From NCBI GenBank assembly GCA_018818125.1, contig JAHISQ010000120.1, forward strand, positions 4,658 through 68,657: a stretch of 64,000 nt of DNA. Reading direction: 5' to 3'. Positions within the stretch are counted from its first letter, which is position 1, and the number at the start of each line of letters is the position of its first letter. Shown here piece by piece: positions 3,360-51,012 of the stretch. Below the pieces are notes generated by a model. That model made no database searches. It was not told the DNA's origin and saw only the letters and a list, made by a program, of their open reading frames with translations. This DNA comes from Candidatus Rifleibacteriota bacterium. GTDB lineage: Bacteria; Muiribacteriota; Ozemobacteria; Ozemobacterales; Ozemobacteraceae. The translations under genes were made by a program, and so were the position numbers.

Positions 3360-3363
3360 GCTG

Positions 3364-13350: not shown

Positions 13351-13372
13351 TCAATCGCTATTTTTGAATCTA

Positions 13373-13409: not shown

Positions 13410-13581
13410 ATTCTCTGTCTTATCGCTTAACTGGTTCATAATAATGATAACATTCGCGCCACCGCGTTCCAGGTTTAGACAATACAACTGTGTAAAAAGT
13501 GGACTTTTGTGCGCCTTATACAGGATCTTTCTTCCCTGGTTAACGCCGCGAAAGGAAAAAATAGAAAAATATCGACGTATC

Positions 13582-13590
13582 TGCTAGAAT
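13582..13590 (+). promoter_or_regulatory. Extended -10 promoter element upstream of the ABC operon
   Basis: TGCTAGAAT (TGn + TAGAAT) 30 nt before the permease start; no strong -35. Confidence 0.4.
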
Positions 13591-13619
13591 TCACTTTGAA
13601 TCAATAGAGGGGGTGTATC

Positions 13620-25400: not shown

Positions 25401-26094
25401 TAATTTCTATCGTACCGGCTCCGACATCGAGATTACTCTCTTTGATAGTTTTAACCAGTTCAGGAATCGTAATATTGTAAATTCTCAACATCTCAGGATC
25501 AATGTCGACCTGGTATTCACGAACCATTCCACCAATTGAACCAACTTCTGAGACGCCATCTACCGACTGCAGGGCGAACTTTATGGTCCAGTCCTGAATA
25601 CTCCTGAGCTCGTGCAGATCAAAGCCTTTGCCTTCGACGGTATACCAGAAAATCTGGCCAAGTGCGGTTGCATCCGGGCCCAGCACGGGAGTAACGCCAT
25701 CGGGAAGACTGCCCTTTATAGACGCGAGCTTTTCAATTATTCGCGAACGGGACCAGTAAAAATCGATTTTTTCGTTAAAAATAATGTAGATCGAGGCGAA
25801 TCCGAACATTGAGCTGGCCCTGATTGTAGAAACACCAGGAATGCCCATTAAATTCACTGCCAATGGGTAAGTTATCTGGTCATCAACATCTTTTGGCGAT
25901 CTACCTGGCCAGGAGACAAAGACTATCTGCTGATTTTCGCCGATATCCGGTATCGCGTCCACCGACACCGGGTCTCTTATTATGCCGGTGTTAAAGTCAA
26001 ACGGGATGACCGAAAAGCCGTAACCAGCAAGCATTACCAGTAAAATGGCCGCAATAATGCGTTTTCTCAGAAAGAATCTAATTATTGCGTCCAT
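22435..26094 (-). CDS. cusA: Cu(I)/Ag(I) heavy-metal efflux RND permease
   Basis: DAIPDIGENQQIV, GPDATALGQIF, GTMVDMG, ASDDGVVM, RIRPCLMT; Met residues in LLMPT, PISMIET, LVMLQTG contexts that match the CusA Met triad. Confidence 0.93.
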   Translation of the reverse strand: MDAIIRFFLRKRIIAAILLVMLAGYGFSVIPFDFNTGIIRDPVSVDAIPDIGENQQIVFVSWPGRSPKDVDDQITYPLAVNLMGIPGVSTIRASSMFGFASIYIIFNEKIDFYWSRSRIIEKLASIKGSLPDGVTPVLGPDATALGQIFWYTVEGKGFDLHELRSIQDWTIKFALQSVDGVSEVGSIGGMVREYQVDIDPEMLRIYNITIPELVKTIKESNLDVGAGTIEINRVEYVIRGIGFIKSIEDLKNSVIKSVNGVGITIGNVARVVSGPARRRGVLDKEGAEAVGGVVVTRFGANPLEVIEKVKHKITEISHGLPAKTLADGSLSQVKIVPFYDRTKLINETLQTLQDALSQQITITILVVIVMLLHMSSSLLISGLLPLAVLMTFIAMKFFNVGANLMSLAGIAIAIGTMVDMGIILCENILKHLEKDSETDIPAKESIFNAASEVGSAVITAVSTTIVGFLPVFAMTGAEGKLFSPLAWTKTFALISSLFIALILIPVAATVIFKKKDKTRDLRFFAILISGILLTFFAPKAGIILVFAGLTGIFWGKIPEKIRTFSNKWAPVMFAVAATLYLTWIWMPLGFGRGYFFNLIAVVVTTGSVLVFFRLFLNYYGSMLSWFLDNKKTFAIIPIMVVLFGLHVWLGFARINSWMPDLLAKTGISSELITNSWAWKKGVQVFPGLGKEFMPPLDEGSYLLMPTTMPHASLAECIDVLSKQDRAIRAIPEVESVVGKIGRVDSPLDPAPISMIETVISYVAEYSEPDPVTGLRKRQWRDQIKSPKDIWKEIVRASSVPGTTSAPMLQPIAARLVMLQTGIRAPMGIQIFGPDTQSVEELGFALEKELKQIQGIDASTVSADRIVGKPYIEIEVNRQAAARYGIKVADLQNVIEISLGGKVLSQTFEGRERYGIRLRFARELRDNPELIRNIPVATPDKKFIPLGDLTTISFVKGPQVLKSENSFPVGYVIFDKMPEYAETDVVEEADVYLKRKIAEGSLKLPANTSYKFIGNYQNQVRSEKKLMVVLPLSLLIIFLILYLEFSSVPVTFLVFTGIGVAWSGGFLMIWLYSQGWFLNFSLFGIHFRELLNMHSMNLSIAVWVGFIALFGIASDDGVVMASYLESTFEKNDTNDIKQIRAAVLEAGLKRIRPCLMTTATTILALLPVLTSTGRGADVMIPMAVPTFGGMCVELLTLFVVPVGYCWIKELRLKLEAKQTT

Positions 26095-27971
26095 TATTTA
26101 ATCTCTTTATTCCAGATTTTTTTGGTGGATCCGCATTTGAGCATCATTTTGCCAAAATAAGGGTTGGCCAGTTGTGGGGCAGATTGAAGCCAGATTGCGC
26201 CTTTATTATCGAAAGCCATGGGACAAAAATTTTCCTGAACTGCAAAACTCAATTTGCCATCTACCATAATGATGAGATTTTTTAACACCGCAGTGAGCTT
26301 AAAAAGCTCTTCTCTGGCCATTTTAATGTCCTTGTCTGCGGCCAGTTTCATTAAAATCGGCATCAGTTGATCGGCTACGAGAGACAGTGATTTTACCGAA
26401 GCTTTTTTTAAACCTGGAAGCTGTTCATGTGCCTTCGTTGCAGCGGCCACGGTTGCCTCCAGATCGTCTTCTGCAAGCTTTTCGGAGATTACGAGACAGT
26501 CTTTTACAAGCGTTTCAACGATTCTCAGGTTTTCTTCGGAAAGTTCTTCGCCGGGTGTCTCAGGAGCTTTTGGCGCCGAAGTGTCACGATGTGGGCTCAT
26601 CATACTGTTTTGCCCGCGGATCTGTTGCTCCGAATCAATTTTGAAGGCCCCTTCTACCACAACCCGATCGCCCTTTTCCAAACCCGAATACACGAGATAA
26701 CCAGAATCTACACGCGATCCGACCAGTACTTCTACGGTTTCGTAGGCGCCTTTTTCGCCGACAATTTCTCTGAACACAAGGGATCTTGGACCACTCCAGA
26801 GAACTGCACTTTCAGGAATAATCAAAGGTAATTTGCCATTACTGGCAGTTTTAACTCCCATGCTTTCTATTGGCACCAGATCCATTCCGCAAACATCACA
26901 TTGGCCCGGGCCATCTTTTATCACTTCCGGATGCATTGGCGATATCCATTTGCCGGCCATGGCTGGACTAATTACCTCGCCGTTGCTGCCAATGGATACC
27001 TTTATGGTTACCCTGCCGAACATTCCGGGTTTCAAGAGGCCATTGCTGTTTTCAATGTTAATTCTGGCGTCGACTGTTCGGGTCTCACCAGACAGAATCG
27101 GAGAAATAAAAGATATTGTGCCCGGAAAAATTTTGCCGGGAAACGCTTCAAACTCGCATTCAACCGCCTGACCGTATCTGAGCCATTGAATGTCACGTTC
27201 GTAAACCGATGCAATCAGCCAAAGATGGTTCACGTCAGCAATTGAAAACATCCTTGTGCCCTGATTTACATACATTCCTTCTTTTACTGCCTGCTCTATC
27301 ACGATGCCAGCGCTTGGCGAATTAATGGTAACAAGTTCAGAGGGTGATTTTTTTGCATTAAACATTTCAATCTGTTGAGCGGAAATGCCCCAGCGCAGCA
27401 GGCGCTCAATCACTGCCTTGTGCAAGCTGTCGTTACCGGCAGATCTGATCAATTCTTCCTGGGCGGCGATCAGGTCTGGACTGTAGAACTCTGCCATGTG
27501 ATCGCCCTGTCTGACCGGAATTCCGGTGTAGTTGACATACAACTTTTCAATTCTGCCACCTACCCAGGCAGTAACATGTTTAACTCTGGTTTCATCAAGT
27601 TTAACCGTGCCCGGCAATCTGATTGTTTGTGTAGCAAGGCCCGAAAAAACTTCTGTGGTTCTGACCTCGGCAAGTTCTTGAGCAGTTTCAGAAAGTGTTA
27701 AGACGTTCGGAGCACCTGAATCTGTGCTTTGATTAAGCAGGATGAGGTCCATAAAACAGATGGGACATTTACCGGCACTGGGTTTTCTTATTTGCGGGTG
27801 CATTGAGCAGGTCCATGTTTCGGCCTTGTGTTCCTGGTGACCTGCTTTTACTGCTGGATCTGTCGTGGTCATATCGTTGGCGAAAAAAAAGTAGCCTGCT
27901 ATTATGCCGGCAAGAAAAACAGCCAGAGCGGGCACTAACAAAGTCTTTTTCTCAATCCGATTAAATTTCAT
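26094..27971 (-). CDS. cusB: Heavy-metal RND periplasmic adaptor with metal-binding domains
   Basis: WTCSMHPQ...CPICFMDL, second SPMHP...CDVCGMDL, barrel/hairpin core, C-terminal FCPMAFDNKGAIWL...NPYFG domain. Confidence 0.9.
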   Translation of the reverse strand: MKFNRIEKKTLLVPALAVFLAGIIAGYFFFANDMTTTDPAVKAGHQEHKAETWTCSMHPQIRKPSAGKCPICFMDLILLNQSTDSGAPNVLTLSETAQELAEVRTTEVFSGLATQTIRLPGTVKLDETRVKHVTAWVGGRIEKLYVNYTGIPVRQGDHMAEFYSPDLIAAQEELIRSAGNDSLHKAVIERLLRWGISAQQIEMFNAKKSPSELVTINSPSAGIVIEQAVKEGMYVNQGTRMFSIADVNHLWLIASVYERDIQWLRYGQAVECEFEAFPGKIFPGTISFISPILSGETRTVDARINIENSNGLLKPGMFGRVTIKVSIGSNGEVISPAMAGKWISPMHPEVIKDGPGQCDVCGMDLVPIESMGVKTASNGKLPLIIPESAVLWSGPRSLVFREIVGEKGAYETVEVLVGSRVDSGYLVYSGLEKGDRVVVEGAFKIDSEQQIRGQNSMMSPHRDTSAPKAPETPGEELSEENLRIVETLVKDCLVISEKLAEDDLEATVAAATKAHEQLPGLKKASVKSLSLVADQLMPILMKLAADKDIKMAREELFKLTAVLKNLIIMVDGKLSFAVQENFCPMAFDNKGAIWLQSAPQLANPYFGKMMLKCGSTKKIWNKEIK

Positions 27972-27986
27972 TCTATCTGGCCCCGC

Positions 27987-29375
27987 TTAAAATTGGATTT
28001 TGCCAATATCATAAAGCATGTCTGCTTTGGCTTTGAGGGTGGCGAATTCAGAATCGATAAGCTTTTCTCTCAGATTCAGGAGTCGCTTTTCAGTTTCAAC
28101 CAGTTCCTGAAAGCTGGCTTGTCCGCTTTCATATTTTGATTTTACGCTGGCAAAAGCCTTTTCAAGCTCTGGCAGCATTTGAGCTCTGATAATCTGCAGA
28201 TTCTTTCTGTTGCGCTGAAAAGATTCAAGGTCGCTGGTATATTGCGCCTGCAGTGCCAGTCTGGTAGAAGTTACTGTTTCTGATTGTGCCTGTTTTCGTG
28301 CTTTGATCTGCTCAACGAAAACCCGGTTGAATTCAATTTTTGAGTCAACCTGAGGCATACCGGCTGAGGCTGTAGCTGACATGCCTTTTTTCATCGGCAG
28401 TTGAGCTGTGCTCGTATATTCGGGAAAAGCCATTCTCTGAACCAGTGCAATTGAATCTTCGAGCCGGCTCAGTCCGATTTTTTCTGCGCTTAAACCCGGG
28501 TGATCAGCGAATTCGAGATTGTTCGACCAGCTTAAAGTTGCAAAATCAGAAGTAAGAAAGCCGCTGAAATTCAGTACCGGCCGCTTTCCATCGAGCAGCG
28601 TGAGCGCTTTTTCCTGCTGCTCCTTTAACATCGTCTGATACTGATTCTTCTGAGTCTCAAGTCGCCCGGCCTCAATCGAGATCATGGTCAGCTCTGGGAA
28701 AGAAATCTTTCCATTGCGATAGAGAGAGTCTGAGGTTGTCTTGAGATCATTGTAGAGATTGATTGTTTTATCGAGCAGAGTCAGTTTTTTGCGGGCTGCA
28801 ATGATTTGATATGCTGTAATTCTGGCCTGTCGGGCCAGTCCGGCAAGAAAGTTGTCAAGCCTTGCGCTGGCTTCGTCGCCGATTGATTCTGCTATCCTTG
28901 ATTTGATTGCCGACACACCAGGAAACGGATGCTCTTTAAAAAGTGGTGTCAATGTCGGCGATTGGCTCATAAAAGCCGAAAACTGATTAAGCAGAAGCTC
29001 CAGTGCTTGAGTTTGCGACAGATTGTATCTGGCTGCGACAAGCATCTGCTTTTGTTTGCGGGCTTCCGGAGCAAGCGTCAGGGCAGCTCGGGCAAAGTCT
29101 TCAGGCGTCGCGATTGCCAGTAATGCTGAAGATTGCGCGTCTGCGGTATCGTTGCTAATCTGGCCTGATCGCTTTTCTGAGCTGATTGGAACTGCCTGAG
29201 TCTTGTTGGTAAGACCCGGAAAGTCGCTGTTAAAAGTGCTTTTGCTCTCTTTGGCAGGTTTGTAGCTTTTCAAAACGTCGAGTTGCTGGCGGTAAAATGT
29301 GCTTGCAGGCATTGGCTCAGCAAAACCCGGCAGATTGAGGCAGAACAGGGCAAGAATTATCGTAGTTTTTCTCAT
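27987..29375 (-). CDS. TolC-like outer membrane efflux protein (divergent)
   Basis: Signal peptide, helical repeats, C-terminal KYESGQASFQELVETE; within the cus operon. Confidence 0.75.
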   Translation of the reverse strand: MRKTTIILALFCLNLPGFAEPMPASTFYRQQLDVLKSYKPAKESKSTFNSDFPGLTNKTQAVPISSEKRSGQISNDTADAQSSALLAIATPEDFARAALTLAPEARKQKQMLVAARYNLSQTQALELLLNQFSAFMSQSPTLTPLFKEHPFPGVSAIKSRIAESIGDEASARLDNFLAGLARQARITAYQIIAARKKLTLLDKTINLYNDLKTTSDSLYRNGKISFPELTMISIEAGRLETQKNQYQTMLKEQQEKALTLLDGKRPVLNFSGFLTSDFATLSWSNNLEFADHPGLSAEKIGLSRLEDSIALVQRMAFPEYTSTAQLPMKKGMSATASAGMPQVDSKIEFNRVFVEQIKARKQAQSETVTSTRLALQAQYTSDLESFQRNRKNLQIIRAQMLPELEKAFASVKSKYESGQASFQELVETEKRLLNLREKLIDSEFATLKAKADMLYDIGKIQF

Positions 29376-30670
29376 TTCAAGGTCTCCTCTGACTGAATCT
29401 CAAATGGCGTTCCGATCCATTTTTCCAGCTCGCTGGCGCTGATAAAATAATCAGCTTCTGCGCGCAGGGCGGCGATTTTAATCGCGTAAACAGTCGTCAT
29501 GGCTTCGAGATAGTCAGAGAATTTGCTTTTATCTGCAGTAAAGGTGCTTTGGGCAGTATCAGCGGCAGTTTGCGCCTGTGGCAGTATGGTCTGGGAATAA
29601 AGCTGATGCAGCCTTTTTCGGTTGGCCATGCTGTACCAGAGCTTGATAAAACTGACTCTGGTTTTATCTTTTTCGGCGGTCAGCAGAGCATCTGCCTCGG
29701 ATTGTTTTTCTCTCGCCTCTTTTGTTCGGCTTCGATTCTTGCTGCCCCAGACGGGCAGGTTCATCTGCACAAAGAAACCATAGGAGTCTTTGCCTTCGTC
29801 TTTGAGATACATATTGCCAAGATCGGGGCGATTACCGGTATAGTTTTTACTGTAGCCAATGGTAAAGTCGGGTTTGTTGTCAAAATGCGCCAGTCGAAGC
29901 TTTGTTGCCGCTATTTTCTGCGAATTTTCCGCCACGGCGATTTCGGTTCTGTTGACTAAGGCCTGTTCGATAAGTTCTTTTTCGTCACTGGCAATTTTGT
30001 GTTGAGGAAGCATGGTGAACCATTGAGAATCGAGTGTCTGAAGGCCGGTTAAAGCTATGAGCCTGGCTTTTTCTGATTCCAGCAGCTCAGAGTAATTGAT
30101 TTGATCGTTTGCACTTTGTGCAAGCTGGCTTTGAGCACGCAAAACCGGAAGCATCGAAGCCGACGAAGTGTTTGCAGTTGCTTCGGCGGCGAGAAATTCT
30201 ACAATTTTGGCGTTGGCCTCAGTTGTTTCGGTAGCGTGCTGCAAAAACCATATTTCGGCGTAACTCTTTTTGATTTCGCTGACAAGATCGCGAAGTTTCA
30301 TCTCATAGAGCAGCTTTTCGTTTTGCGACAGCTGATGATTTAATCTTATTGCAGCTTTCTGCTTACCTGGAAACGGCAACATCTGGCTGATGGTCAGCGT
30401 TTGCTTTTGCTCGCCGGTTCTGGTCTGTACCGGCTCAATATTCTGGCGAAAATTTACCACCGGGTCAGCAAGTGCGGTTTTATGTATTATTGCTGACTCG
30501 GCGGCTTTCCAGCGATGGTAAGTGGCTGAAAGCTCTGGATTTTTCTGCAGGCAGCTTTCGAGCAGAATGGTCAGACCATTGCTTTCCTGGCTAAATAATG
30601 CGGCAGGTCGGCAGAAAAGAACAAAAAGGGCAAAAAGGGCAAAAAACAGCTGGTTTCGATAAGTCGCCAT
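29372..30670 (-). CDS. TolC/CusC-like outer membrane efflux protein
   Basis: QKNPELSA, LADPVV, SQMLPFPGK, KPDFTIG, NLPVWG, ILPQAQ. Confidence 0.88.
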   Translation of the reverse strand: MATYRNQLFFALFALFVLFCRPAALFSQESNGLTILLESCLQKNPELSATYHRWKAAESAIIHKTALADPVVNFRQNIEPVQTRTGEQKQTLTISQMLPFPGKQKAAIRLNHQLSQNEKLLYEMKLRDLVSEIKKSYAEIWFLQHATETTEANAKIVEFLAAEATANTSSASMLPVLRAQSQLAQSANDQINYSELLESEKARLIALTGLQTLDSQWFTMLPQHKIASDEKELIEQALVNRTEIAVAENSQKIAATKLRLAHFDNKPDFTIGYSKNYTGNRPDLGNMYLKDEGKDSYGFFVQMNLPVWGSKNRSRTKEAREKQSEADALLTAEKDKTRVSFIKLWYSMANRKRLHQLYSQTILPQAQTAADTAQSTFTADKSKFSDYLEAMTTVYAIKIAALRAEADYFISASELEKWIGTPFEIQSEETLK

Positions 30671-30735
30671 TTAATTCTCCATCCGCGAGAAACTTACTGA
30701 AATCTTATTATACTATTTCAGCTGCCAATGACGAG

Positions 30736-31143
30736 TTATTCTACTTTTGGCTCCATGCTTTCCTGATTACTATAGAATGTGATTGTGGAGGCCTCTTCGT
30801 CGATTTTGAAGAACTTAAGGCTGGCTTCCAGCCCTGAAACTGGGCATTTGCCATCAACGTTGGTTACTTTTAGAGTTTTGGTCGGAGCATCTTTCAGCTT
30901 TTCCAGAAATTTGGCGGGATCAGCCTCAAAGGTGCCAATACAGCCGCCGCAGCAGAAATAGTAGAGATGTCCGTCAACAATCGTATTGACTGTTTTGTCG
31001 ATTTCGCCTCCCATAACCGGGCAATTCGTGTTGAGAACTTCGATTATCTCGGTTGGAAAGGTTATTGATGCTTCTTCAGCGGTCAGATTGGTATAGAAAA
31101 AAACTGCCAGAATCACGGTTAAGATCAGAATTGTATTTTTCAC
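30736..31143 (-). CDS. Periplasmic YHS-like metal-binding protein
   Basis: Signal peptide, NCPVMGG...YYFCCGGC...ADPAKF and a second degenerate KCPVSG repeat. Confidence 0.8.
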   Translation of the reverse strand: MKNTILILTVILAVFFYTNLTAEEASITFPTEIIEVLNTNCPVMGGEIDKTVNTIVDGHLYYFCCGGCIGTFEADPAKFLEKLKDAPTKTLKVTNVDGKCPVSGLEASLKFFKIDEEASTITFYSNQESMEPKVE

Positions 31144-31258: not shown

Positions 31259-34147
31259 TTAAACTCGATATATGGGCACTGGCTCTGTTTTGCCCTTAAT
31301 GTTGATCTCACCGAGGCTTTCAGCCTGAATACTGTTGGCAAGGTGTCTTCTAGTTGTGCTTTCAATAATGATCTTCGAGCCGGAGTCTTTTTCTGCCAGT
31401 GCGTTGAGACGTGCCGAAAGATTCACGGCGTCGCCGATTACCGTATAGTCGAGGCGAATATCCTTGGCGCCCAGTATGCCTGCTACTACCGATCCGGTAG
31501 CCAGGCCGTAATAGCCGGAACAGCCCTGGGACATCAGTTGTTGCTTGAGTGAAACAACCGTTTCGATGCCCTGCTTTACGGCTTCATCTGCGCTTTGGCA
31601 GGCCTCATGATCGAAGAATACCAGGATTTTGTTTTCCATAACCTTGTCGATGACGCCGGAGGTTTGGCGAACAGCTTCCTGACAGGACTTAAGATGAAAA
31701 GCCAGCTTATCTAGAAAAACCTCTGCTTCACTGTTTGCATCGGTTTTTATTGAGGCGAAGAGAATGGTCATTTCACGCCTTTCGCCGATCATGGCTTTTT
31801 CGAAGGCCGCTTTGTCTCGAATTACATTTATGACTGCTGATGATACGAACTTGCCGAGCAGCGAGCCTTCTTCGAGTCCTTTTGCCATAGTATTGAAAGA
31901 TCTGGCAATATGCCCAAATTCATCTTGCCTATGATCAGCGTTTATTCTGGTGTGAAAATCGCCGAGTCTGACGTTGTTAAGCCCTATCTGCAATTGTTTT
32001 AGCGGGCTCATGAAATACCAGTAAAGACCTATTACCATAAACAACAATAGAATCAGACCTGACAGCAGACGGTTGTTAAATTCTTGTTCCAGTCGCATCT
32101 GTTCAGCGAAAACCTCTTTTAATGATGTAATGCCGGTCAGAATATACATGCGCAGAGATTTGCCTGGCCGAGATTTGATCAATAGTCTGTCTTCGGTTGA
32201 CAATAGTTCACGCGATGTTAGCTGAATGCCAACGCGGCGAGTTCTCTCTGTGAGATCCCATGCTTGCGGTATTACTGGTGTTGTGCTTCTGTTAAAGCCT
32301 TGAAAAGCGCCTTTTCTAACGGCAATAAATTCAAAATTATCAGCAAGTTGAGATCTATTATTAATCAAAAAGTCGAGATAATCCTCGGATTCGTTGAATT
32401 CACTCCACATGATCAGCAGTAACGCTCTGATGACGCCATTGAATTTTAACGGCAAACCAGTCATTGAAATCATAATAAATGTTGAATCTACCTCGACAAG
32501 ATTGGACGAGTTAGCCATCAGCTGGTGATACAATTTTTGGCCAAGAATGCCCTGAAAAAAATTGACAATAAAGTCGGTTATCATCTCGTCTTTTACACCC
32601 TGCAAAGACAGATTCTCAGAAGATTGCTGTGTTTTTTTTATCAACTCTGGCCGGTATTTATGCAACAAACTCTTCAGTAGTGGCGAAATCATTTCGCTTA
32701 TTTTTTTTGCATCCTCTTGCTTGCGAAGCCGGATCGTGTTTTCGCCAGTGTCCTGTTGCAATGACATGAATAACAGACTGTTGCCAAGCTGGGTTGGGTA
32801 AAGGGCCTTAACTTTATTATCAATGGCCTCTAAAGCCTCACTCTGTTTCTCGTTGGCGATCAGTTGCATTATCTCAGGGTAGTTTTCGAGATGCTGAACA
32901 CGGTAAAAAAAGTCGGCCATCGACAGGTCATAGCGGTCTTCGAGACATTGCAGGTTTCTTTCGAGATCACTTTCGGCTTTTTTGCGCATGACAGAGAGAT
33001 GGCTATCCATTGAGTATTTGACCACGAGTCGTCCGAGTCCGGCGGGCAGATAAAATATTGAGATGATCGCAGTCAGCATTACCAGTGCAATAGAAATGCG
33101 CCAGCCCCGGCGAAAGATTTTTCGTTGCAGAAGCATTAGCGAAAGGCCCCCGAACAGAACAAAAACCAGCGCAATAAAACAGGTTTCACCGATCGAAAGT
33201 GGAATAGCTGCGATCTGGCGGCTGACAAGTATTATAAAAGCAGGCTCTCCGACCAGAACTGGTGCTGCACAGATATTAAATTCACCAAACTCTTTCTGAA
33301 CCAGAGTCATTGGCAGGCGTGTCACTTCATTTTTGATAAAGCGCTGCAATCTTGGCTGTTTGCGCAGTAATGGCGACCAGAAAGGTTTGCCATTTCCAGA
33401 CATTGGCAGAAAAGCGAAGCCGGTTGTGGCAGAATCGGCAGTATCAATCAGTGCTTTGTAGGAATAGTCAGATGCAATGCTTTTGACATCGAAGATAGCG
33501 CTGACCAGAACTCTTTTGCCAGCCGTGTCTGGGTAAAACCAGTAAAGCAAGGTGTTGCCAGATTTAGAAGTGAATGGAATCATGATCCCTTCGTCTTTAC
33601 GTTTAATAGCGTTTTGACTGAAACTGATCGTAAGAACATTGACTGGAAAACCGGTCATTATACTTAGTTTTTCGGCTGCATCATCATATTGAAATTTGCT
33701 GCAGGTTTCTTCGCGCATCAGTGGCGTAAGGCTGCTCAAAAGATTGGGTCCGGGCAATGTGGAGCTTTCAAAGACGGTCGTCGGCAGTTCGTCTTTTTCT
33801 GTTTTAACGGCAACAGATAGATGATGCGGCGGTAGACCGTTTTTCAGTTGCTGCTGATAAAGTTTTTCGGCTGCTGCTGTAATACTGTTGCTGCCCGCAG
33901 ACTCTATTTTGGCACGCAGACTGCGCTGAAAGGTGTTGAGACGTTGCAGTATCTGATATTCCCAGTTGCCACTTACCTGCATTTTTTCAATCAGAGTTCT
34001 GGAATTCTGATTGGAGGTATCTACAAGTTTTGCAAAATCGCGTTGGCGCGATGAAGACCAGTCTATAAGCACCAGCACAAAAGGAATCGCGAGAAACAGC
34101 CATGCGGCAAGAATTGCAAGTGCCGAAAACTTTTTCTGACTGTTCAT
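31259..34147 (-). CDS. 4TM-HAMP class III adenylate cyclase, C2-like half (metal Asp pair lost)
   Basis: HAMP then cyclase: ILFASIK (Asp to Ser), DKVMEN (Asp to Asn); YTVIGDAVNLSARL and IKGK retained. Confidence 0.88.
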   Translation of the reverse strand: MNSQKKFSALAILAAWLFLAIPFVLVLIDWSSSRQRDFAKLVDTSNQNSRTLIEKMQVSGNWEYQILQRLNTFQRSLRAKIESAGSNSITAAAEKLYQQQLKNGLPPHHLSVAVKTEKDELPTTVFESSTLPGPNLLSSLTPLMREETCSKFQYDDAAEKLSIMTGFPVNVLTISFSQNAIKRKDEGIMIPFTSKSGNTLLYWFYPDTAGKRVLVSAIFDVKSIASDYSYKALIDTADSATTGFAFLPMSGNGKPFWSPLLRKQPRLQRFIKNEVTRLPMTLVQKEFGEFNICAAPVLVGEPAFIILVSRQIAAIPLSIGETCFIALVFVLFGGLSLMLLQRKIFRRGWRISIALVMLTAIISIFYLPAGLGRLVVKYSMDSHLSVMRKKAESDLERNLQCLEDRYDLSMADFFYRVQHLENYPEIMQLIANEKQSEALEAIDNKVKALYPTQLGNSLLFMSLQQDTGENTIRLRKQEDAKKISEMISPLLKSLLHKYRPELIKKTQQSSENLSLQGVKDEMITDFIVNFFQGILGQKLYHQLMANSSNLVEVDSTFIMISMTGLPLKFNGVIRALLLIMWSEFNESEDYLDFLINNRSQLADNFEFIAVRKGAFQGFNRSTTPVIPQAWDLTERTRRVGIQLTSRELLSTEDRLLIKSRPGKSLRMYILTGITSLKEVFAEQMRLEQEFNNRLLSGLILLLFMVIGLYWYFMSPLKQLQIGLNNVRLGDFHTRINADHRQDEFGHIARSFNTMAKGLEEGSLLGKFVSSAVINVIRDKAAFEKAMIGERREMTILFASIKTDANSEAEVFLDKLAFHLKSCQEAVRQTSGVIDKVMENKILVFFDHEACQSADEAVKQGIETVVSLKQQLMSQGCSGYYGLATGSVVAGILGAKDIRLDYTVIGDAVNLSARLNALAEKDSGSKIIIESTTRRHLANSIQAESLGEINIKGKTEPVPIYRV

Positions 34148-37017
34148 GCTTCGAGAACCTCAAAATTTTCGCTGTTGGTAAGTGGCGTCAGTGACAGATC
34201 TGGCATAAGGTTCTTTATTTCCGGACTTACCACGATGTGCGTATAATGGCCTTGCTTGGACTCTGCTTCGAGCTCTTCTGATTGCTGCCGCGCCTTTCCA
34301 GTAAGGCTGTATTCGTGACGCTCGCCGGCGCCAAATGAGCCGATCAACAGTTCTCCGCAGGCGACGCCGATGCCCATGCCATAACCGAACAGGCCTTGTT
34401 CGTTGCGTTTCTCGACAAAATGACCATGCTGCGTCATCATGCCGATTGCTGCTTCTACTGCATTTTTGCAGGCTGAGGTTTTGCTGTCGCCGAAGAAAAC
34501 GGCAATAATAGCATCACCGATAAACTTGTCAATTTCGCCGTGGTTGCTGGTAATTTGTGTGCTCATCAGCTCAAGATGGCGGTTGAGCAGTTCGACAATC
34601 TGTTCTGGCGGATAAGTCTCGGAAAGAGTTGTAAAATTGCGGATATCTGAGGCCAGAACAACACCCCAGCGCTTTTCCGGCTTTTTTTCAAGCTGGTCTG
34701 TCACATCCAGTCTCCTTGAAAGTGTGCCGGAAACAAACTGTGCCAACTCGTTGCGCTCATAAAGCCCTTGCGCCATGCTGTCAAAAGCATCAGCAACATC
34801 GCCAAGCTCATCATCGCGATTCATGTTCAGTCTAAAGTCGAATTTGCGTTCGAGAATATTAATGATACCGGTTTCGATAACATGCAATGGCCGAAGAAAG
34901 AACGAAGCCAGAGCGCTGGTAACCATTGCCAGAATTGCTGATAAAAGCAAAGCAGCGGTCAGTAGCAGATGATATTGCTGACTTGTCCTGGTGAACAGTG
35001 GCTCAAGGCTCACTGTAGAACCAAGCGCGATGCCTTGCATGTTTTCGCATGGTGTGCATATTGCCAGAGTTTTTTCGAGAGTTTCGACTTGAAAAGAGCT
35101 GGTTCTTAGCGCTTCTGACAGTGTCTGCAGAAACCAGTTTTCATGTTCTTTGACAACCCTGGATCTGGGCACTACCAGACCGATATTTGCCTCGCGCTTT
35201 TCGGCCATGGCCCATAGGCGATCTGGCGACGATTTTGCTCCACGCATAATCGCATTTCTGGCGAATCTGGCATAGGCTTCAGAGGCGGGGGCAAAGAAGA
35301 TCACGGCTGCGACTATTTTTCCATTGTCGGCGATAAAATCATAAACGATAAAATCTTCGGTATCGCCGAAAGACATCAGCAGGCTTTTTTGACGAGCTAA
35401 CGACAGGTCGCCGAAAATCGGAGTATTGGTGATTGTGTGATAAGTTTCAAAGCCAAGTCTCTTGCTCTCAGAGAGTTTTTCCATCGCTTTGTTGTGATCT
35501 GATTCAGATAGATCTTTGAGACCTGCATACATCATGGGTGAAAAAAAGTTGAGTTTGGATTGGTCACCTTTTTTGTTTGAATCAGGCGAAAAAATCATCT
35601 GGTCAGTGTTTCCAAAATATACTATGCCGATAGCATTTAGCGGAACACCGTTTGCTGCGAATTCGGCGAAACAGTGGCGCAATATTTCTGAATTTTTATC
35701 AACTTTGGCAACCGCCATGGCGCTCTTAAATTCTTTGTTAGACAGGTATCGACGTGCGATATTTTCAAAAATCATGCGTAGCGCTGTGCTGTTTCCATCT
35801 ATTTCCCGCATCTCCGAACGGACTTCATCGATCAGCGAGCGTTCGCGAACATAGTGATCCTGCTCAATAACCGATCGCCCGGCGAGAATCAGCAATAGTA
35901 TCGGAAATCCGCCTACAATTATAACCAGCCCAAGTAAACGTGCTTTTACCGAAAAATTAAAAGGCTGTGAGCGCCAGAGCCTGATGCCAAAAGTTGTGAG
36001 CCAAAACAGTGCCAGCAGCCATCCATAGATGCTGCTGATTCTGATTCTGTTTTGTTCTGGGAGTTCTGCTGTCAGCCAGAGCTCGTAAGGCAGGTGCCTG
36101 GGCAAGACTGCTCGGAATGTAAAAACGTGTTCGTACAATATCCCTGAACTCAATGATGCTATCTGAGAATATTCGGTGTTTTTGGTGAGCAGCGAAAAAA
36201 ACTGTAACACTGTTGTTTCACCACGATATTCGCCGGGAATTAAAGGATTTAGTTCGCTTCTAAGGCTTTTTAGCGGCATCAGAATCGGAAAAAATCTGTT
36301 TTGCGAGGCTTTTGCAATCTCATCCAGAGCTTTTTCAGCAGTATCCTTTGGAGATGGCTTTGTGCTCGAAATAATCAGAAAAGCTCCTATCTGCTTTCCT
36401 GAAACCCTGAGAAAGTCCCAGAAGATGATACGGCTTTTGCCGTTAAATACTACGTCGATACTGCGTCCGTTACGATTACTCAGCAACATTTCGCCGTTGA
36501 CGCGTTCGCCAAAAATACTGGCGAGCCGGTTGTTTATCTTGTTTTGTTCGACTACATTGATGTTTTGCCAGTCGCGCAGCTGGTAAATGATTTTTGCCAT
36601 AAAGGCACTGTTTTGTCTGGCCAGACCTTCACCTGTCAGCGCTTTGCTGTTGTTTGGAGAAAATTTGAATACGTAAACGACGGCATCTTCTGACAGCCAA
36701 CCCTGCGGCAGATTATTGAGCAGCGCGTTTTTTATCAGTCCGCCATTTTGCTCAAAAGGATCAGCAACGTTGCCAAGCTGATTTTGAGCCTGCAATATAC
36801 CGTGTTGCATCTGTATTGCTGTTGTGCAGTTGGCATTGAACTGCTGAGCCAGTGCCGCAGATTCTTCTTCATGTTCGACAATCAACTGTTGGTCGGACAA
36901 ACGCTTTTGATAATTGTCCCAGTAATTGGCACCGGGCATAAGCAGCAAAGACAGCACAAACACCGCTGCCAGAAAAAAATCAGACCGCCTGTTCAAACAA
37001 GTTTCCTGCCTTCTCAA
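34144..37017 (-). CDS. 4TM-HAMP class III adenylate cyclase, C1-like half (Asn/Arg lost)
   Basis: VLASDIRNFT and DKFIGD intact; YSLTGKARQQSEEL replaces YTVIGDxVNxAxRL; no KGK. Confidence 0.88.
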   Translation of the reverse strand: MRRQETCLNRRSDFFLAAVFVLSLLLMPGANYWDNYQKRLSDQQLIVEHEEESAALAQQFNANCTTAIQMQHGILQAQNQLGNVADPFEQNGGLIKNALLNNLPQGWLSEDAVVYVFKFSPNNSKALTGEGLARQNSAFMAKIIYQLRDWQNINVVEQNKINNRLASIFGERVNGEMLLSNRNGRSIDVVFNGKSRIIFWDFLRVSGKQIGAFLIISSTKPSPKDTAEKALDEIAKASQNRFFPILMPLKSLRSELNPLIPGEYRGETTVLQFFSLLTKNTEYSQIASLSSGILYEHVFTFRAVLPRHLPYELWLTAELPEQNRIRISSIYGWLLALFWLTTFGIRLWRSQPFNFSVKARLLGLVIIVGGFPILLLILAGRSVIEQDHYVRERSLIDEVRSEMREIDGNSTALRMIFENIARRYLSNKEFKSAMAVAKVDKNSEILRHCFAEFAANGVPLNAIGIVYFGNTDQMIFSPDSNKKGDQSKLNFFSPMMYAGLKDLSESDHNKAMEKLSESKRLGFETYHTITNTPIFGDLSLARQKSLLMSFGDTEDFIVYDFIADNGKIVAAVIFFAPASEAYARFARNAIMRGAKSSPDRLWAMAEKREANIGLVVPRSRVVKEHENWFLQTLSEALRTSSFQVETLEKTLAICTPCENMQGIALGSTVSLEPLFTRTSQQYHLLLTAALLLSAILAMVTSALASFFLRPLHVIETGIINILERKFDFRLNMNRDDELGDVADAFDSMAQGLYERNELAQFVSGTLSRRLDVTDQLEKKPEKRWGVVLASDIRNFTTLSETYPPEQIVELLNRHLELMSTQITSNHGEIDKFIGDAIIAVFFGDSKTSACKNAVEAAIGMMTQHGHFVEKRNEQGLFGYGMGIGVACGELLIGSFGAGERHEYSLTGKARQQSEELEAESKQGHYTHIVVSPEIKNLMPDLSLTPLTNSENFEVLEA

Positions 37018-37091: not shown

Positions 37092-38972
37092 TTAATCTTC
37101 AGATAAATCATATTCAGGGTAATACTTTTTTGCACACTCTTCACAGATTCCATGAGTGAATTCTGCATCTGAATGCTCTCGGACATACGACTCTATCTGG
37201 TTCCAATACCCTTTGTCATCCTTGATTTTTTTACAATGTGAACATATTGGCAATAGCCCACTTAATTTTTTTACCTGAGAAATTGCTTTTTGCAATTTAA
37301 TAACGGTTTCTTCCAATTTCTGATTTATCTGTTCTAGTTTTTGATTGTATTTTGAAACAATTGTAAATAGATAAATACCTACGGATAAGACGGCAATGAT
37401 GCCTCCTATGATCTTCCAGAAAAGGTTATAGTCAAACCCCCTCTCATATTTGACGGATATCCATTGTGAAAGAATTTTTGCTCTTTCTTTTTCTGTGATT
37501 GAGTCGATCGCTTTGTTAATTATTGATAGTAATAATGGGTCGTCGTTTCTGATACCGACTGATATTTTATATCTTTCTTCCAGTTTCCCTGCTATTTTCA
37601 AGTTAAACAAATTATAGCGTTGGATCAGGTAGCCAATCGCAGATATTGTGCCAATATAACCAAGCACTTCCCGTTTTTCCACCATCCTAAGACCTGATAA
37701 TGCATCATTAACTTCTACAATTTTGAGATCTGGATATTTTTTTCTTAAAATCTCAATTGCAGGGTAATTTTTTGTAATAGCAAACTTAGAATTCATGACC
37801 TGGTGAATGCTTTCTATAAATACCTGATCCTGTGTCGTTGCAATAACCATGGGAACATCTATTAGTGGTTGAGTGAAATTCAGATATTCTCTACGTGAAG
37901 GAGTTGGAACTGCCGCTGACAGAATGTCGCACTGTTTGCTTTTTGCAAACTCAAGCGACTCGGACCAGCTTTTTGTTTTCAACAATTTGATTTGTCTACC
38001 AATTCGTTTTGCAATAATATCTAAATAGTCTGCCAGCATACCCTTGTGCAAATCATTGTCATCTATGTAGGAATATGGCATCCAGTTAGGGTCTGTGCAC
38101 ATATCTATAACTTCTTTTTCGGCAAGATACTTTTGCTCTTCTGGTGTGAAATTTATCGTTCCCAGCTTGTCTTCATCGCTTTTTAAGGGGAAAAACCATC
38201 TGTTTTGTATTCTTAGTCTTTCCTCGCCAGAAATCTCAGCCAGACCCTTGTTGAGAATTGATATTGCTTCCGGCCAGTCCTTTCTTATTCCAAATGCTAC
38301 GCTCAGCGTGTCTTCAAGAGGGAATGCAATTTGGATGTAGGGCAGGTTCAGTTTATAGGATGCATACAAAATAGAACCATTGCCAAATGCGGCATCGGCT
38401 TCTCCGCTGATAACGGCTTTAATCACGCCCTCAATTGAATCACTGCTGAGAATTGTGGACTCCTTAAAATCCAGTGCAAGCTTTTCATCCAGAAGGTTGC
38501 CCTTGTGAATTATGATTTTTTTTCCCTTAAGGTCTTTTTTTGAAAAAATGTTTTTTGGGTTCCCGTTCTGGACAAGAATTGTTTTTTTTAATGAAGCGTA
38601 AATATTTGAGAAATTCAAAAAAACTTTGCGTTCTTCATGAATTGCACCGGTGCTTAATCCATCTATTTCTTTTCGTCTTGCCTTTTCCTGCATTTCCAGC
38701 CATTTGCCGGCCCTTAGTTGAAAGTTGGCTCCAGTAGCTTCGTTGATTTTTCCTAGTATTTCAGAATCGTATCCTGTGATGTCTCCATTGTCTTTAACAA
38801 TGACAAATGGTTCCCATGTTTTTTCGGTTCCAAGTGTAATCAATGGATGCTTGTCTAAAAATTCTCTCTCACTTTTGGATAGTTCTACTTTTTGCATACT
38901 GATGACTTCCGAAAACGGAATCAAGCTGAAAATCAGTGCTATAATGGCTGTCCAGCATTTTGAATGCAACAT
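37092..38972 (-). CDS. Sensor with two family-3 solute-binding domains, TM helix and C-terminal Cys/His module
   Basis: Two SBP-like repeats (TWEPF...GYDSEI; DPNWMPY...GMLADY), KYERGFDY-TM, LPICSHCKKIKDDKGYW...HGICEEC. Confidence 0.87.
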   Translation of the reverse strand: MLHSKCWTAIIALIFSLIPFSEVISMQKVELSKSEREFLDKHPLITLGTEKTWEPFVIVKDNGDITGYDSEILGKINEATGANFQLRAGKWLEMQEKARRKEIDGLSTGAIHEERKVFLNFSNIYASLKKTILVQNGNPKNIFSKKDLKGKKIIIHKGNLLDEKLALDFKESTILSSDSIEGVIKAVISGEADAAFGNGSILYASYKLNLPYIQIAFPLEDTLSVAFGIRKDWPEAISILNKGLAEISGEERLRIQNRWFFPLKSDEDKLGTINFTPEEQKYLAEKEVIDMCTDPNWMPYSYIDDNDLHKGMLADYLDIIAKRIGRQIKLLKTKSWSESLEFAKSKQCDILSAAVPTPSRREYLNFTQPLIDVPMVIATTQDQVFIESIHQVMNSKFAITKNYPAIEILRKKYPDLKIVEVNDALSGLRMVEKREVLGYIGTISAIGYLIQRYNLFNLKIAGKLEERYKISVGIRNDDPLLLSIINKAIDSITEKERAKILSQWISVKYERGFDYNLFWKIIGGIIAVLSVGIYLFTIVSKYNQKLEQINQKLEETVIKLQKAISQVKKLSGLLPICSHCKKIKDDKGYWNQIESYVREHSDAEFTHGICEECAKKYYPEYDLSED

Positions 38973-39154: not shown

Positions 39155-42067
39155 ATGATGAATATATTCAAAATTCCGCTCAGGTTGCTTGAGAGTTTTT
39201 TTGCCCGGAAGTTTCTGGTGCTGAATGCTCTCATCGGAATTTTGTGTTTTGTTGTATTGCCTGGTCTGATTGTATTTCGCGGCATTGAGGCAATGACATC
39301 GCACCATATATCTGAGATTAATTCAACGGCGCGTCACAGGCTCGAAAACAGACTTGATCAGCTTGAATTCTTTTCGAGTAACGACAGGTTTGCCCATTTT
39401 TTGCTGACATCGCTGTGTAAGGATTCTGATGGCAGCGAAAAGAACCTTTGTAGTCTTTCTGCTGATATTGCACGTCTTAAGAAACGTTTTGCCAACGCCT
39501 TTACTTTTGTTGTGGCGGATCGGCAGGGAAAGATTATTCCGAAATTGTCTGACGAGAAGAACTACGCTTATCTTTACCGTCAGGCTTTTTTGCTGATCGC
39601 CGAATGTGAAAAAGCTGTTCAGCAGAATTTTCAGCCTGAGAGCCTGGATAACATCGATGTGAGAATTACCCGTTTACGTCCGGTTCTTGGCGACCTGCTC
39701 AGACAGACTGATTTGTTCATGCCTTTAAAAGGTCCTCGTACCGGGCAATCTATTCTGGTATCTGGCAGCGCTGATAAATTCAATCTGTGGTATGGCACCG
39801 GGCGGGATTTTCGACTGATTGTTTATGTCAGTCGCGATTTTATAAGAGGAAACGATGGACTGGTGTGGGCTGTAGACAGACTGAATCGCCAGAGTCCAGA
39901 TCTGCTGACAGGAATTTCCAGATATCCGCCACTGTCTGAAAATCTGATTCCGCAGATTGCAGATGAGCAGTCGGCAAAAGTGATGCTTGCGCTGGCAAAA
40001 TATGAAGATATAAACCTGGAAAGCGCAGGCGATGATGATCAGATTGCCTGTAGTTTTCTAAACCAGCAGTGGCGTGGTTTCTGTTTTTTCAGATCTGGTG
40101 GTTTCAGCAATGTAGTGGCAATAAGAGCCAGCATGTTCAGTTCTCTTGCACGCATTTTACTGGTGATTCTATTCATAATTGCCGTTTATCAGCTGAAGAC
40201 CCCTGTTTCTGTCACCGTAAAGCTCAAGATCACAGCTTTTTTTAGTTATGCAATTGTTTTGCCGCTGCTTGTGATTGCTTCGCTCTCCTTGCAGTATATA
40301 AGGCAGGCAGAAGGCAGTATTATCAATGATTTGCAAAAAGAGGCGCAACAAACTCTCGAAAGAATTGATGCCGATCTGGCCTGGTATTCCAAGAACAAGG
40401 CTGCAGATCTTGATGATTTTCTAAGCCGGCAACTCAAAAATCGTTCAGTGGATCAGTTCAGTCGGAATGAACTGGTAAATTTCGACCTGGATCTTCGCAA
40501 AGTAGCAGATCACGATGATGCAATTATTCTCAATGCTTCTGGAAATGACTTTTTGCAGGGAATTTCTCCAAGAATCTCAATGAATCATGTTCTTGTTCGC
40601 CGAATTGGTTGTGATACTCTCAAACTTCTTGTTGCGCCAGATTATGTCTCCAGCATCAATAAAGCGAATGTTTTATCCTGGGAGTTTCTGGGAGATATCT
40701 ACGATTTGCAGAGTACAATTACCTATCTGGGAGTTGGTGACTTTGAGATGGCTGCATATTACCGTCTATTGACGCCCCCCTCAGGTCGTATTGATGATGT
40801 TCTTTTTGTTGCCATATTCTGGAAGTTGAGTAAACTCCACCGCAGTTTTGTCGAGAATTACTGTAAAACCAAGCTGATTTCGACACCGAGGCTAAAAATT
40901 GCGGCTTTTTGTCGCGACAGCGATCGTTTATTTGTATCTCCTGATGGAGCTGATTCAAGACTTACCCGATTCATGAAGCTTTCAATAAATCGTCAGAATA
41001 TCAGGAGTTCTGATTTCAGGCTTTCTGGAAGTCGGCATGTAGCAATAGCTATGCCTGGTCGTAGTCTAAAACACATCATTCTGGCAGCTTTAATGCCTGC
41101 GGATGTTATTGAACAGCAGACCGATAAAATTGTAAATAAAGCCTTGTTCTTTGCGGCTTTTCTCTGTCTGATAAGTGTGGCAACTATGTATTTATTGCGC
41201 AGTTGGATATTCAGGCCGCTCGAAGAACTAAGGACTGGCATCAGGGCAATTGGTGAAAGAGCATTTCACAAGCGGCTGAATCTGGTCTGTAACAATGAAC
41301 TTGGCAGGCTTATGAGCGCTTTTAATTATTCTCTGGAAACACTACAGGAACTTGAAGTCGCGCGAATTGTTCAGGAAAGCATATTGCCTGAACCAAGAAT
41401 GACAGTGAACCGTGTCGAAGTTGTTGCACAGACTCTTGCCATGAGCGGTTTGGGCGGTGACTATTTTGACATGATCAAACTGGATGACCAGAAATTACTT
41501 GTCTTTATCGGCGATGCTACGGGGCATGGCATTCCAGCGGCCCTCAGTATGGCAATGGCCAAAGCAACGCTGATTCATGAAAACAATCGAAGTTTGTCGC
41601 CAGAAAACCTGATGCAACAGCTGGATAAACTTTTTGCAAAACTTCGAAAACATGGAGTTAAAGACTATATGACTGCTCTCTGTGTCGAGATAGACAGCAT
41701 GTCTGGCGTTGTCAGAATCATTAATGCCGGGCACTGTTTTCCGATATTGCTTGAGTCGTTAACAGGAAAAGCTCGACTGCTGAAGGCTGCGCGAGGACTT
41801 CCCGCCGGATTTGATGCATATGGCAGTTCTAAGCCGGCTGAGATTAAGCTTGCACCTGGTGACAGCCTGATTCTTTATACAGATGGTTTTATCGAATGTT
41901 CCAGTCCGAGTGGCGAACCTGTTGGCTTTGATGGTCTGATAAAAATAGTTGAACTTGCTCAAACTGTTGATCTGACTGCGCACGTTGCAGGAATTTTTCA
42001 GCATCTGAAGCAGTGGTCGGAGCATCGCCAGGATGACTGTACTATGATAATTTTGAGGTTTTCATGA
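39155..42067 (+). CDS. 4TM-HAMP SpoIIE/PP2C phosphatase
   Basis: HAMP (RPLEEL...NELGRL), GGDYFD, DATGHG, NAGH, YTDG, QDDCT. Confidence 0.9.
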   Translation: MMNIFKIPLRLLESFFARKFLVLNALIGILCFVVLPGLIVFRGIEAMTSHHISEINSTARHRLENRLDQLEFFSSNDRFAHFLLTSLCKDSDGSEKNLCSLSADIARLKKRFANAFTFVVADRQGKIIPKLSDEKNYAYLYRQAFLLIAECEKAVQQNFQPESLDNIDVRITRLRPVLGDLLRQTDLFMPLKGPRTGQSILVSGSADKFNLWYGTGRDFRLIVYVSRDFIRGNDGLVWAVDRLNRQSPDLLTGISRYPPLSENLIPQIADEQSAKVMLALAKYEDINLESAGDDDQIACSFLNQQWRGFCFFRSGGFSNVVAIRASMFSSLARILLVILFIIAVYQLKTPVSVTVKLKITAFFSYAIVLPLLVIASLSLQYIRQAEGSIINDLQKEAQQTLERIDADLAWYSKNKAADLDDFLSRQLKNRSVDQFSRNELVNFDLDLRKVADHDDAIILNASGNDFLQGISPRISMNHVLVRRIGCDTLKLLVAPDYVSSINKANVLSWEFLGDIYDLQSTITYLGVGDFEMAAYYRLLTPPSGRIDDVLFVAIFWKLSKLHRSFVENYCKTKLISTPRLKIAAFCRDSDRLFVSPDGADSRLTRFMKLSINRQNIRSSDFRLSGSRHVAIAMPGRSLKHIILAALMPADVIEQQTDKIVNKALFFAAFLCLISVATMYLLRSWIFRPLEELRTGIRAIGERAFHKRLNLVCNNELGRLMSAFNYSLETLQELEVARIVQESILPEPRMTVNRVEVVAQTLAMSGLGGDYFDMIKLDDQKLLVFIGDATGHGIPAALSMAMAKATLIHENNRSLSPENLMQQLDKLFAKLRKHGVKDYMTALCVEIDSMSGVVRIINAGHCFPILLESLTGKARLLKAARGLPAGFDAYGSSKPAEIKLAPGDSLILYTDGFIECSSPSGEPVGFDGLIKIVELAQTVDLTAHVAGIFQHLKQWSEHRQDDCTMIILRFS

Positions 42068-48378: not shown

Positions 48379-48381
48379 ATT

Positions 48382-49203: not shown

Positions 49204-49204
49204 C

Positions 49205-49960: not shown

Positions 49961-49986
49961 GTGTGGCTAGGAGGCCTTTTGAATAA

Positions 49987-50988: not shown

Positions 50989-51012
50989 GTGAAGTATCCG
51001 GGAGGTACGGAC

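Follow-up and report, generated by a model that had tools for sequence, protein, structure and literature searches.

An overlapping gene pair for receptor-like class III cyclases from Riflebacteria with complementary active-site losses, predicted to form a heterodimeric adenylate cyclase

An overlapping pair of paralogous membrane cyclase genes

The 64,000-nucleotide stretch of contig JAHISQ010000120.1 from a Candidatus Rifleibacteriota bacterium that we analyzed (hereafter the window, to whose full length the coordinates below refer, unless another locus is named) carries on its minus strand two adjacent genes, here termed A and B, whose products we propose to be the complementary subunits of a single membrane receptor adenylate cyclase. 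Both products display the same architecture, with four predicted transmembrane (TM) segments, two periplasmic regions, a HAMP domain and a C-terminal class III nucleotidyl cyclase domain. The genes and their junction are the following:

34144-37017, minus strand: gene A, the candidate C1-like subunit, an open reading frame (ORF) of 957 residues when read from its first TTG
31259-34147, minus strand: gene B, the candidate C2-like subunit, an ORF of 962 residues
34144-34147, minus strand: ATGA overlap of the stop codon of A and the start codon of B, the junction reading gcATGAac

A and B are paralogs along their full length, as indicated by a profile-profile alignment with hhalign (probability 99.3, 825 columns, 21% identity). 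Translation of A probably begins at its second TTG (36996), because an AGGA lies six nucleotides upstream of it and the database copy of A is 950 residues long. The overlap of the two reading frames suggests translational coupling, by which A and B would be produced together.

Domain matches were judged against the Pfam gathering scores, that of the class III nucleotidyl cyclase family (PF00211) being 21.9 bits, and both the HAMP and the Guanylate_cyc matches exceed these scores in both chains. Together with the regions deduced from hydropathy and structure prediction, the domains are distributed as follows:

34762-34911, minus strand: HAMP domain of A, residues 703-752 (Pfam PF00672, 28 bits)
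31868-32026, minus strand: HAMP domain of B, residues 708-760 (Pfam PF00672, 44.3 bits)
34147-34680, minus strand: cyclase catalytic domain of A, residues 780-957 (Pfam Guanylate_cyc, 44.6 bits)
31262-31786, minus strand: cyclase catalytic domain of B, residues 788-962 (Pfam Guanylate_cyc, 32.1 bits)
33188-34060, minus strand: first periplasmic region of B, residues ~30-320, dCache-like by AlphaFold2 model and Foldseek, with no Pfam match
32081-33040, minus strand: second periplasmic region of B, residues ~370-689, between TM3 and TM4
34966-36927, minus strand: two periplasmic regions of A, residues ~31-328 and 380-684, placed by hydropathy and by the full-length hhalign match to B

Hydropathy profiles point to four hydrophobic segments in each chain, three of which exceed the threshold in A while the fourth is weaker. 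The loop between TM2 and TM3 is strongly basic, and the HAMP domain follows directly upon the last TM segment (residues ~685-703 in A and ~690-708 in B). Based on these profiles and on the dCache-like model of one of the regions in B, each chain is predicted to expose two extracytoplasmic regions of ~300 residues, giving four per pair, and those of A are homologous to those of B. In an AlphaFold2 model of residues 1-712 of B the predicted local distance difference test (pLDDT) score is ~75-90 over residues 30-320 and poor over 450-680, lying below 50 for most of the second periplasmic region. Foldseek searches with residues 30-320 recovered the dCache ligand-binding domains of chemoreceptors and histidine kinases (E-values 5e-6 to 1e-3), among them PctD (7prq), TlpQ (6fu4), Mlp24 (6ios) and PctA (5ltx), at template-modeling scores of only ~0.3 when normalized to the target, and a Pfam scan gave no dCache match and no match for the second periplasmic region of B. 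Because these scores are modest and a Pfam match is lacking, we use the label dCache-like, with moderate confidence, for the first periplasmic region of B and do not assign it to the dCache family proper.

Catalytic residues are divided between the two chains

The active sites of class III cyclases form across a head-to-tail dimer, in which one chain provides the two metal-binding aspartates and the other the base-selecting pair, the Asn-Arg pair and the terminal lysine. We located these positions in A and B by codon translation and by alignment to the Pseudomonas aeruginosa cyclase CyaB (PDB 3r5g), which is the best solved relative of both domains (E-values 2.8e-19 for A and 1.3e-15 for B). 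The codons, on the minus strand, are given here position by position:

First metal Asp: Asp791 of A (34645-34647), kept; Ser799 of B (31751-31753)
Substrate Lys: Lys831 of A (34525-34527), kept; Lys835 of B (31643-31645), purine-selecting, kept
Second metal Asp: Asp835 of A (34513-34515), kept; Asn839 of B (31631-31633), lost
Substrate-specifying Thr/Asp position: Cys887 of A (34357-34359), lost; Thr884 of B (31496-31498), kept
Transition-state Asn: Gln911 of A, lost (Gln911 to Glu915 spanning 34273-34287); Asn909 of B (31421-31423), kept
Transition-state Arg: Glu915 of A, lost; Arg913 of B (31409-31411), kept
Terminal phosphate-binding Lys: absent from A, whose C-terminus ends in NFEVLEA; Lys951-Gly-Lys953 (KGK) of B (31289-31297)

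The full class III catalytic set is present in neither chain and is complete only across the two, A being without the Thr, Asn, Arg and terminal Lys and B being without both metal Asp residues. Moreover, an alignment of the two domains reveals a four-residue deletion in B in the loop immediately after Ser799. A and B thus exhibit the complementary loss of catalytic residues in two different domains that is found in heteromeric class III cyclases. The original prediction, which was made from this DNA alone, had called attention to the coupling of the two genes through a four-nucleotide overlap and to the division of residues between their products; the ATGA is indeed read at the junction, and all the codons that it cited translate as claimed.

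In terms of subclass, the Lys and Thr retained in B (K835 and T884), which are invariant in its 15 orthologs, constitute the class IIIb pair, and the nearest structures of the A and B domains are the IIIb enzymes CyaB, CyaC, bPAC/OaPAC and ADCY10. In human ADCY10, A matches residues 41-192 in the C1 half and B matches residues 266-417 in the C2 half.

The reciprocal losses are fixed in orthologs

We recovered 14 orthologs of A and 15 of B at 48-71% identity, many of the A and B orthologs lying on the same contigs. All 14 A orthologs keep the Asp, Lys and Asp, while their Thr site reads C/G/S/A, their Asn site Q/H/N/K and their Arg site E/V/I/K/Q. Conversely, the first metal site is Ser in all 15 B orthologs and the second varies among N/S/E, with the Lys, Thr, Asn, Arg and KGK being invariant. 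Each subunit has fixed what its partner has lost and has let the positions it does not need drift.

The order A then B, with the identical four-nucleotide overlap, recurs in at least six other assemblies (L002, L003, L081, L082, L085 and L086). In two of these (L081 and L085) the gene immediately upstream of A encodes an asparaginase, which in the window is encoded farther upstream, past inserted genes; the gene context around the orthologous pairs is only partly conserved. The conserved unit is the A-B pair itself, as the neighborhood otherwise differs among the orthologous loci.

Paralogous tandem pairs and natural fusions

We then scanned 185,579 species genomes with the alignment of B, translated the ORFs at the 80 loci found and scored their catalytic sites with a profile of the A and B domains. 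Every tandem pair of HAMP-cyclases of ~1000 residues examined shows the same split, amounting to about ten further pairs, which come from Riflebacteria, from Ozemobacteraceae or from metagenome-assembled genomes (MAGs) that also carry A and B orthologs. Their signatures are given below in the order first metal, substrate Lys, second metal, Thr/Asp, phosphate Arg, Asn, Arg and terminal Lys:

L004 pair: first gene DRDARTEE, second gene CKDTHNRK
L006 pair: first gene DKDCRQQE, second gene AKDTHNRK
L007 pair: first gene DKDFRDEE, second gene AKESRNRK
L009/L018/L020 pair: first gene DRDTR..., second gene QKNSKNRK
L028 pair: first gene DRDRRQE-, second gene RKEFRNR-
L047 pair: first gene DQDVRITE, second gene DKESRNRR
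L014/L017/L023 pair, in reversed order: first gene HKD.RNRK, second gene DTDARD.-
L021 pair, in reversed order: first gene HKDARNR-, second gene DSDSRDAE
L083 pair, from Ca. Ozemobacter sibiricus: first gene DLDRKQA-, second gene EKDARNRK
L084 pair, from a metagenome contig: first gene ---YRIKE (a fragment), second gene GLEDKNRK

The relatives recovered from other phyla, numbering 50-odd, are single genes with nearly always the canonical D,K,D,(T/S),R,N,R,K, and none of them has a complementary partner.

Just upstream of the orthologous pair in L002 we detected a single ORF (117-5387, plus strand) with two HAMP and two cyclase domains. A search with it yielded 16 proteins (P0041-P0056) of ~1970-2007 residues from different contigs, sharing 37-99% identity, one of them from Ca. 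Rifleibacterium amylolyticum. All 16 have the layout sensor-HAMP-cyclase (A-like) followed by sensor-HAMP-cyclase (B-like), which is the A-then-B order of the gene pairs. Their N-terminal cyclase retains D,K,D, with H/A/N/S at the Asn site, Q/N/E at the Arg site and no terminal Lys, and their C-terminal cyclase has S or G at the first metal site and keeps the N, R and K (in short, S,K,D / N,R,K). We interpret these fusions as Rosetta-stone evidence suggesting that A-type and B-type chains cooperate; starting from an ATGA overlap, the loss of a single base would suffice to fuse such genes.

An alternative explanation is that A and B each homodimerize, with B, and perhaps A, being a dead pseudo-cyclase that serves as a receptor, a scaffold or a nucleotide-binding regulator, and that their adjacency reflects co-regulation after tandem duplication. 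Receptors with HAMP and dCache domains do normally homodimerize, and degenerate cyclase domains without a partner exist: in L047 an orphan A-like cyclase (13130-15334, minus strand; signature D,K,D,T,K,G,Q,-) is convergent to a canonical single cyclase (11000-13129) and has no B-like neighbor at its locus; it might find a partner in trans or lack activity. Nevertheless, independent homodimers would leave unexplained the exactly complementary losses in every pair and ortholog, the invariance of the Lys, Thr, Asn, Arg and KGK of B and of the two Asp of A, and the repeated fusion of A-like and B-like domains in single chains, for which reasons we regard this alternative as improbable.

Phylogeny and extent of the family

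In a neighbor-joining tree of the catalytic domains, from which seven signature columns had been removed, the A-like domains, including the N-terminal halves of the fusions, form one clade (84 of 100 bootstraps). Hence, the A-type lineage seems to have arisen once and then to have multiplied along with its partners. A profile of the sensor region of B (residues 1-712), run against 1.84 billion representative proteins, returned just 48 matches, nearly all of 965-1035 residues. Those that bear a cyclase domain, 41 in number, are without exception B-like, with a non-Asp residue at the first metal site in 40 and with the Asn and Arg in all, so there is a tight link between the type of sensor and the type of catalytic domain. 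The family defined by this sensor is small, and its named members belong to Riflebacteria.

Proposed mechanism

The reciprocal pattern is not due to chance, as it is invariant in the orthologs and repeated in every paralogous pair examined. Based on it, we consider it likely, with good confidence, that A and B are active only as a heterodimer and together make up a membrane receptor adenylate cyclase in which a single site is functional and the second pocket is degenerate. This division of labor in the manner of C1 and C2 domains had been put forward in the original prediction, which also proposed surveying adjacent cyclase genes and required the reciprocal degeneracy to be conserved in orthologous pairs, a check that it withstood. 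Such loss is seen in all the tandem pairs found and is unvarying in the 14 A and 15 B orthologs, and these observations, along with the fusions, the conserved overlap and the correspondence to the two halves of ADCY10, lend support to the proposed heterodimer at the level of sequence comparison.

Under this proposal each chain would cross the membrane four times, expose two periplasmic regions and relay a signal through its HAMP domain to its cyclase domain. The cyclase domains of A and B would pair head to tail to give two sites. In the active one, Asp791 and Asp835 of A would be combined with Lys835 and Thr884 of B for the selection of ATP, Asn909 and Arg913 for stabilizing the transition state and Lys951 of the KGK motif for contacting the phosphate. 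The mirror site, made up of the Ser, Asn and shortened loop of B and the Cys, Gln and Glu of A, with no Lys, is predicted to be dead. No complete site would arise in either homodimer, given that A:A would be without the transition-state and phosphate-binding residues and B:B without the metal ligands. Physical association of A and B, for which the natural A-like/B-like fusions and the conserved coupling of the genes are indirect evidence, and signaling from the periplasmic domains of both are likewise what we infer from the sequences. The degenerate site could, speculatively, act as an allosteric pocket, and an AND gate formed by the two sensors is plausible, though equally speculative. In this regard, chimeras of the Mycobacterium tuberculosis cyclase Rv1625c with two unlike receptor halves regained activity and did not regain ligand control (PMC4821796), which cautions against expecting two unlike sensors to act additively.

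The Lys/Thr pair of B leads us to predict ATP as the substrate and cyclic AMP (cAMP) as the product. As the choice of substrate is deduced from only two residues, and as specificity predictions for class III enzymes are sometimes wrong, the heterodimer might instead make cyclic GMP or another cyclic nucleotide, or cyclize no nucleotide at all. Against this, the Lys/Thr pair is the IIIb signature for ATP that is common to CyaB, CyaC, the photoactivated adenylate cyclases bPAC and OaPAC, and ADCY10, the full catalytic set is under strict conservation, and proteins with a cNMP_binding domain adjoin related systems. One of these, of 398 residues, is encoded after the fusion gene in L002 (5501-6697, plus strand), and another, a fragment of a cNMP_binding-MCPsignal chemoreceptor, near the cyclase pair in L084 (7851-8304, plus strand); they are possible cAMP receptors of these cyclase systems. 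The window ORFs that we scanned include no gene for a cNMP-binding protein. We accordingly rate a different product as a shade less probable even than separate homodimers, and retain an adenylate cyclase as the favored reading.

A further alternative concerns the assembly, which could be of higher order, such as A2B2, or could involve a regulated swap between inactive homodimers and active heterodimers, the activity then being set by this exchange of subunits and not by ligand binding. These sequence data do not fix the stoichiometry, and the presence of many A-like and B-like paralogs in one genome (L002 and L018 derive from one MAG) makes cross-pairing possible in principle. However, the genes pair strictly 1:1, with overlapping stop and start codons, and the fusions join the two chains covalently at the same ratio, both of which favor fixed cognate pairs; we regard exchangeable or larger assemblies as the least probable of these alternatives.

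Certain observations weigh against the A:B heterodimer with a single active site, or at least fail to strengthen it. A model of residues 783-1969 of the fusion protein P0049 has a mean pLDDT of 47 and a predicted template-modeling score (pTM) of 0.32, and Foldseek searches with it produced single-domain matches only, of ~195 columns, the model being uninformative on the docking of its two cyclase domains. The B-like domains group as one clade in only 8 of 100 neighbor-joining bootstraps. Across the A/B family, the HAMP motif and the first metal position are 55 residues apart in A and 57 in B; because of this difference of two residues an in-register A:B coiled coil is not self-evident, although as a gauge of coiled-coil register these values are uninformative. 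Two A orthologs have an Asn at the Asn position, though none has the Arg. Finally, some class III cyclases with non-canonical residues retain low activity, so a homodimer of A might be weakly active.

Comparison with known asymmetric cyclases

The proposed split is analogous to the mechanism of mammalian membrane adenylyl cyclases, soluble adenylyl and guanylyl cyclases and the fungal RGC/NeoR enzymes. In the mammalian membrane enzymes AC1-9 (class IIIa, with C1 and C2 domains) the metal-binding Asp residues likewise come from one domain and the Lys, Asn-Arg and terminal Lys from the other, and there is one active and one degenerate site, as we posit for A:B. Around the first metal position their C2 domain carries the stretch FASI, which is also the reading in B. 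The differences lie in their single polypeptide, two six-TM anchors, regulation by G proteins and Lys/Asp pair, as opposed to the two polypeptides with four TM segments each, large periplasmic domains, HAMP domains and Lys/Thr pair of A and B. Human ADCY10 belongs to the same subclass, IIIb, but has C1 and C2 in one soluble chain with no HAMP domain or periplasmic sensor; it has one active site, and its degenerate site serves regulation by bicarbonate.

Among two-chain enzymes, the chytrid RGC1/NeoR and RGC2/NeoR resemble A and B in consisting of two separate membrane receptor polypeptides. The subunit without the NxxxR motif in RGC1/NeoR donates the metal Asp residues to a single active site, its partner gives the base-selecting residues and the second site is regulatory (PMC12264004). 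These enzymes differ from A and B in being eukaryotic, in sensing through a rhodopsin and in being GTP-specific; furthermore, RGC1 has retained its metal Asp and, as an isolated domain, is active by itself, whereas both A and B are degenerate. The α and β chains of animal soluble guanylate cyclase also form one active and one degenerate site (PMC3591389), but this enzyme is soluble and eukaryotic, uses GTP and senses nitric oxide through heme. An exact experimental model of the A/B split is provided by the D300A and R376A mutants of Rv1625c, each of which is inactive, with activity being regained upon their co-expression (PMC4821796); that split is, however, artificial, and natural Rv1625c is a homodimer with two active sites. 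HAMP-linked bacterial IIIb cyclases such as Rv3645, as well as CyaB, resemble A and B in their HAMP-to-cyclase output and IIIb domain, but they form homodimers in which each chain carries every catalytic residue.

According to a specialist review from 2022, bacterial class III cyclases homodimerize and no fused dimeric form is known in bacteria, a statement that the fused Riflebacteria cyclases of ~2000 residues appear, from their sequences, to contradict. Our full-text literature search found no report of a natural heteromeric class III cyclase in bacteria, key older reviews lying outside its coverage and a passing earlier mention being possible. We considered GcyB and GcyC of R. centenum as a bacterial precedent and set them aside: they are called "putative guanylyl cyclase subunits" and "non-catalytic subunits", and no complementary class III domains are described for them. 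What would be new in A and B is the bacterial host, the two four-TM receptor chains with periplasmic dCache-like domains and HAMP domains, the class IIIb chemistry and an independent origin. As judged from domain clustering, this origin is separate from that of the eukaryotic enzymes, since the A-like and B-like domains group with bacterial class IIIb enzymes.

In the textbook and review view, bacterial class III enzymes are homodimers with two equivalent sites, and asymmetric one-site enzymes are eukaryotic products of duplication and fusion. If our proposal is correct, a natural bacterial split enzyme with both unfused and fused relatives in one phylum would open the order of duplication, reciprocal loss and fusion to direct study. 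It would also offer a simple expressible system for examining the role of the degenerate site and the integration of signals from two sensors, both of which are open questions for the mammalian enzymes. The automatic label "adenylate cyclase" on both A and B masks the likelihood that neither works alone. More tentatively, and as a scenario that we would not yet favor, Riflebacteria might have passed, independently of eukaryotes, through a series leading from a homodimer to a two-gene heterodimer with α- and β-type sensors and on to a pseudoheterodimer of ~2000 residues, the pair acting as a two-input receptor with a different ligand for each subunit and an allosteric dead site. Were this so, the series would constitute a bacterial model for the origin of the animal membrane adenylyl cyclases and for the use of their asymmetry.

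Genomic neighborhood

The gene just upstream of A (37092-38972, minus strand) codes for a protein with two SBP_bac_3 solute-binding domains, one TM segment and a Cys-rich C-terminal tail (CSHCKK...HGICEEC), and no such gene was found upstream of A at the orthologous loci. On the downstream side of B there is a heavy-metal-type efflux cluster (22435-31143, minus strand), comprising genes for a YHS/TRASH-domain protein, a membrane-fusion protein with heavy-metal-binding domains, an AcrB-family pump and, in tandem, two outer-membrane factors (29372-30670 and 27987-29375), with a promoter-like site of its own (31211-31183). This cluster looks like an insertion, since it is absent from that position in the orthologous loci examined.

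A second coupled pair with a four-nucleotide overlap is situated next door (39155-42067 and 42064-44979, both plus strand). Its products, of ~970 residues each, combine putative TM segments and a HAMP domain with a SpoIIE/PP2C phosphatase domain, are 27% identical over their last 345 residues and both have the motifs GGDYFD, GDxxGHG, YTDG and DD; no reciprocal motif loss is seen between them (39155-44979). The presence of this pair hints that the host may use sensors in pairs more widely. We also considered whether a neighboring HAMP-SpoIIE protein shares the sensor module of the cyclases and rejected this, as only the TM-HAMP stretch aligns (probability 83).

Elsewhere in the window, a run of small genes lacks Pfam matches, a prepilin N-terminal methylation motif being present in one of them (49205-49960); after this run comes a 1522-residue ORF, also with no Pfam match (50989-55557, plus strand), and the whole (46734-55557, plus strand) may be a pseudopilus or secretion-related cluster. 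At the other end (98-8112), genes for a ketoacyl synthase fragment, two short-chain dehydrogenases, a nitroreductase, a methyltransferase and three radical S-adenosylmethionine enzymes, two with an HMPTM zinc ribbon and one B12-binding, look like a lipid or natural-product modification cluster. Two further sensors are a 1209-residue dCache-PAS-PAS-SpoIIE phosphatase (18716-22345, plus strand) and a histidine kinase with Cache_3 and Cache_2 domains (9518-11299), which together with the cyclase and SpoIIE pairs make the window unusually rich in membrane sensors.

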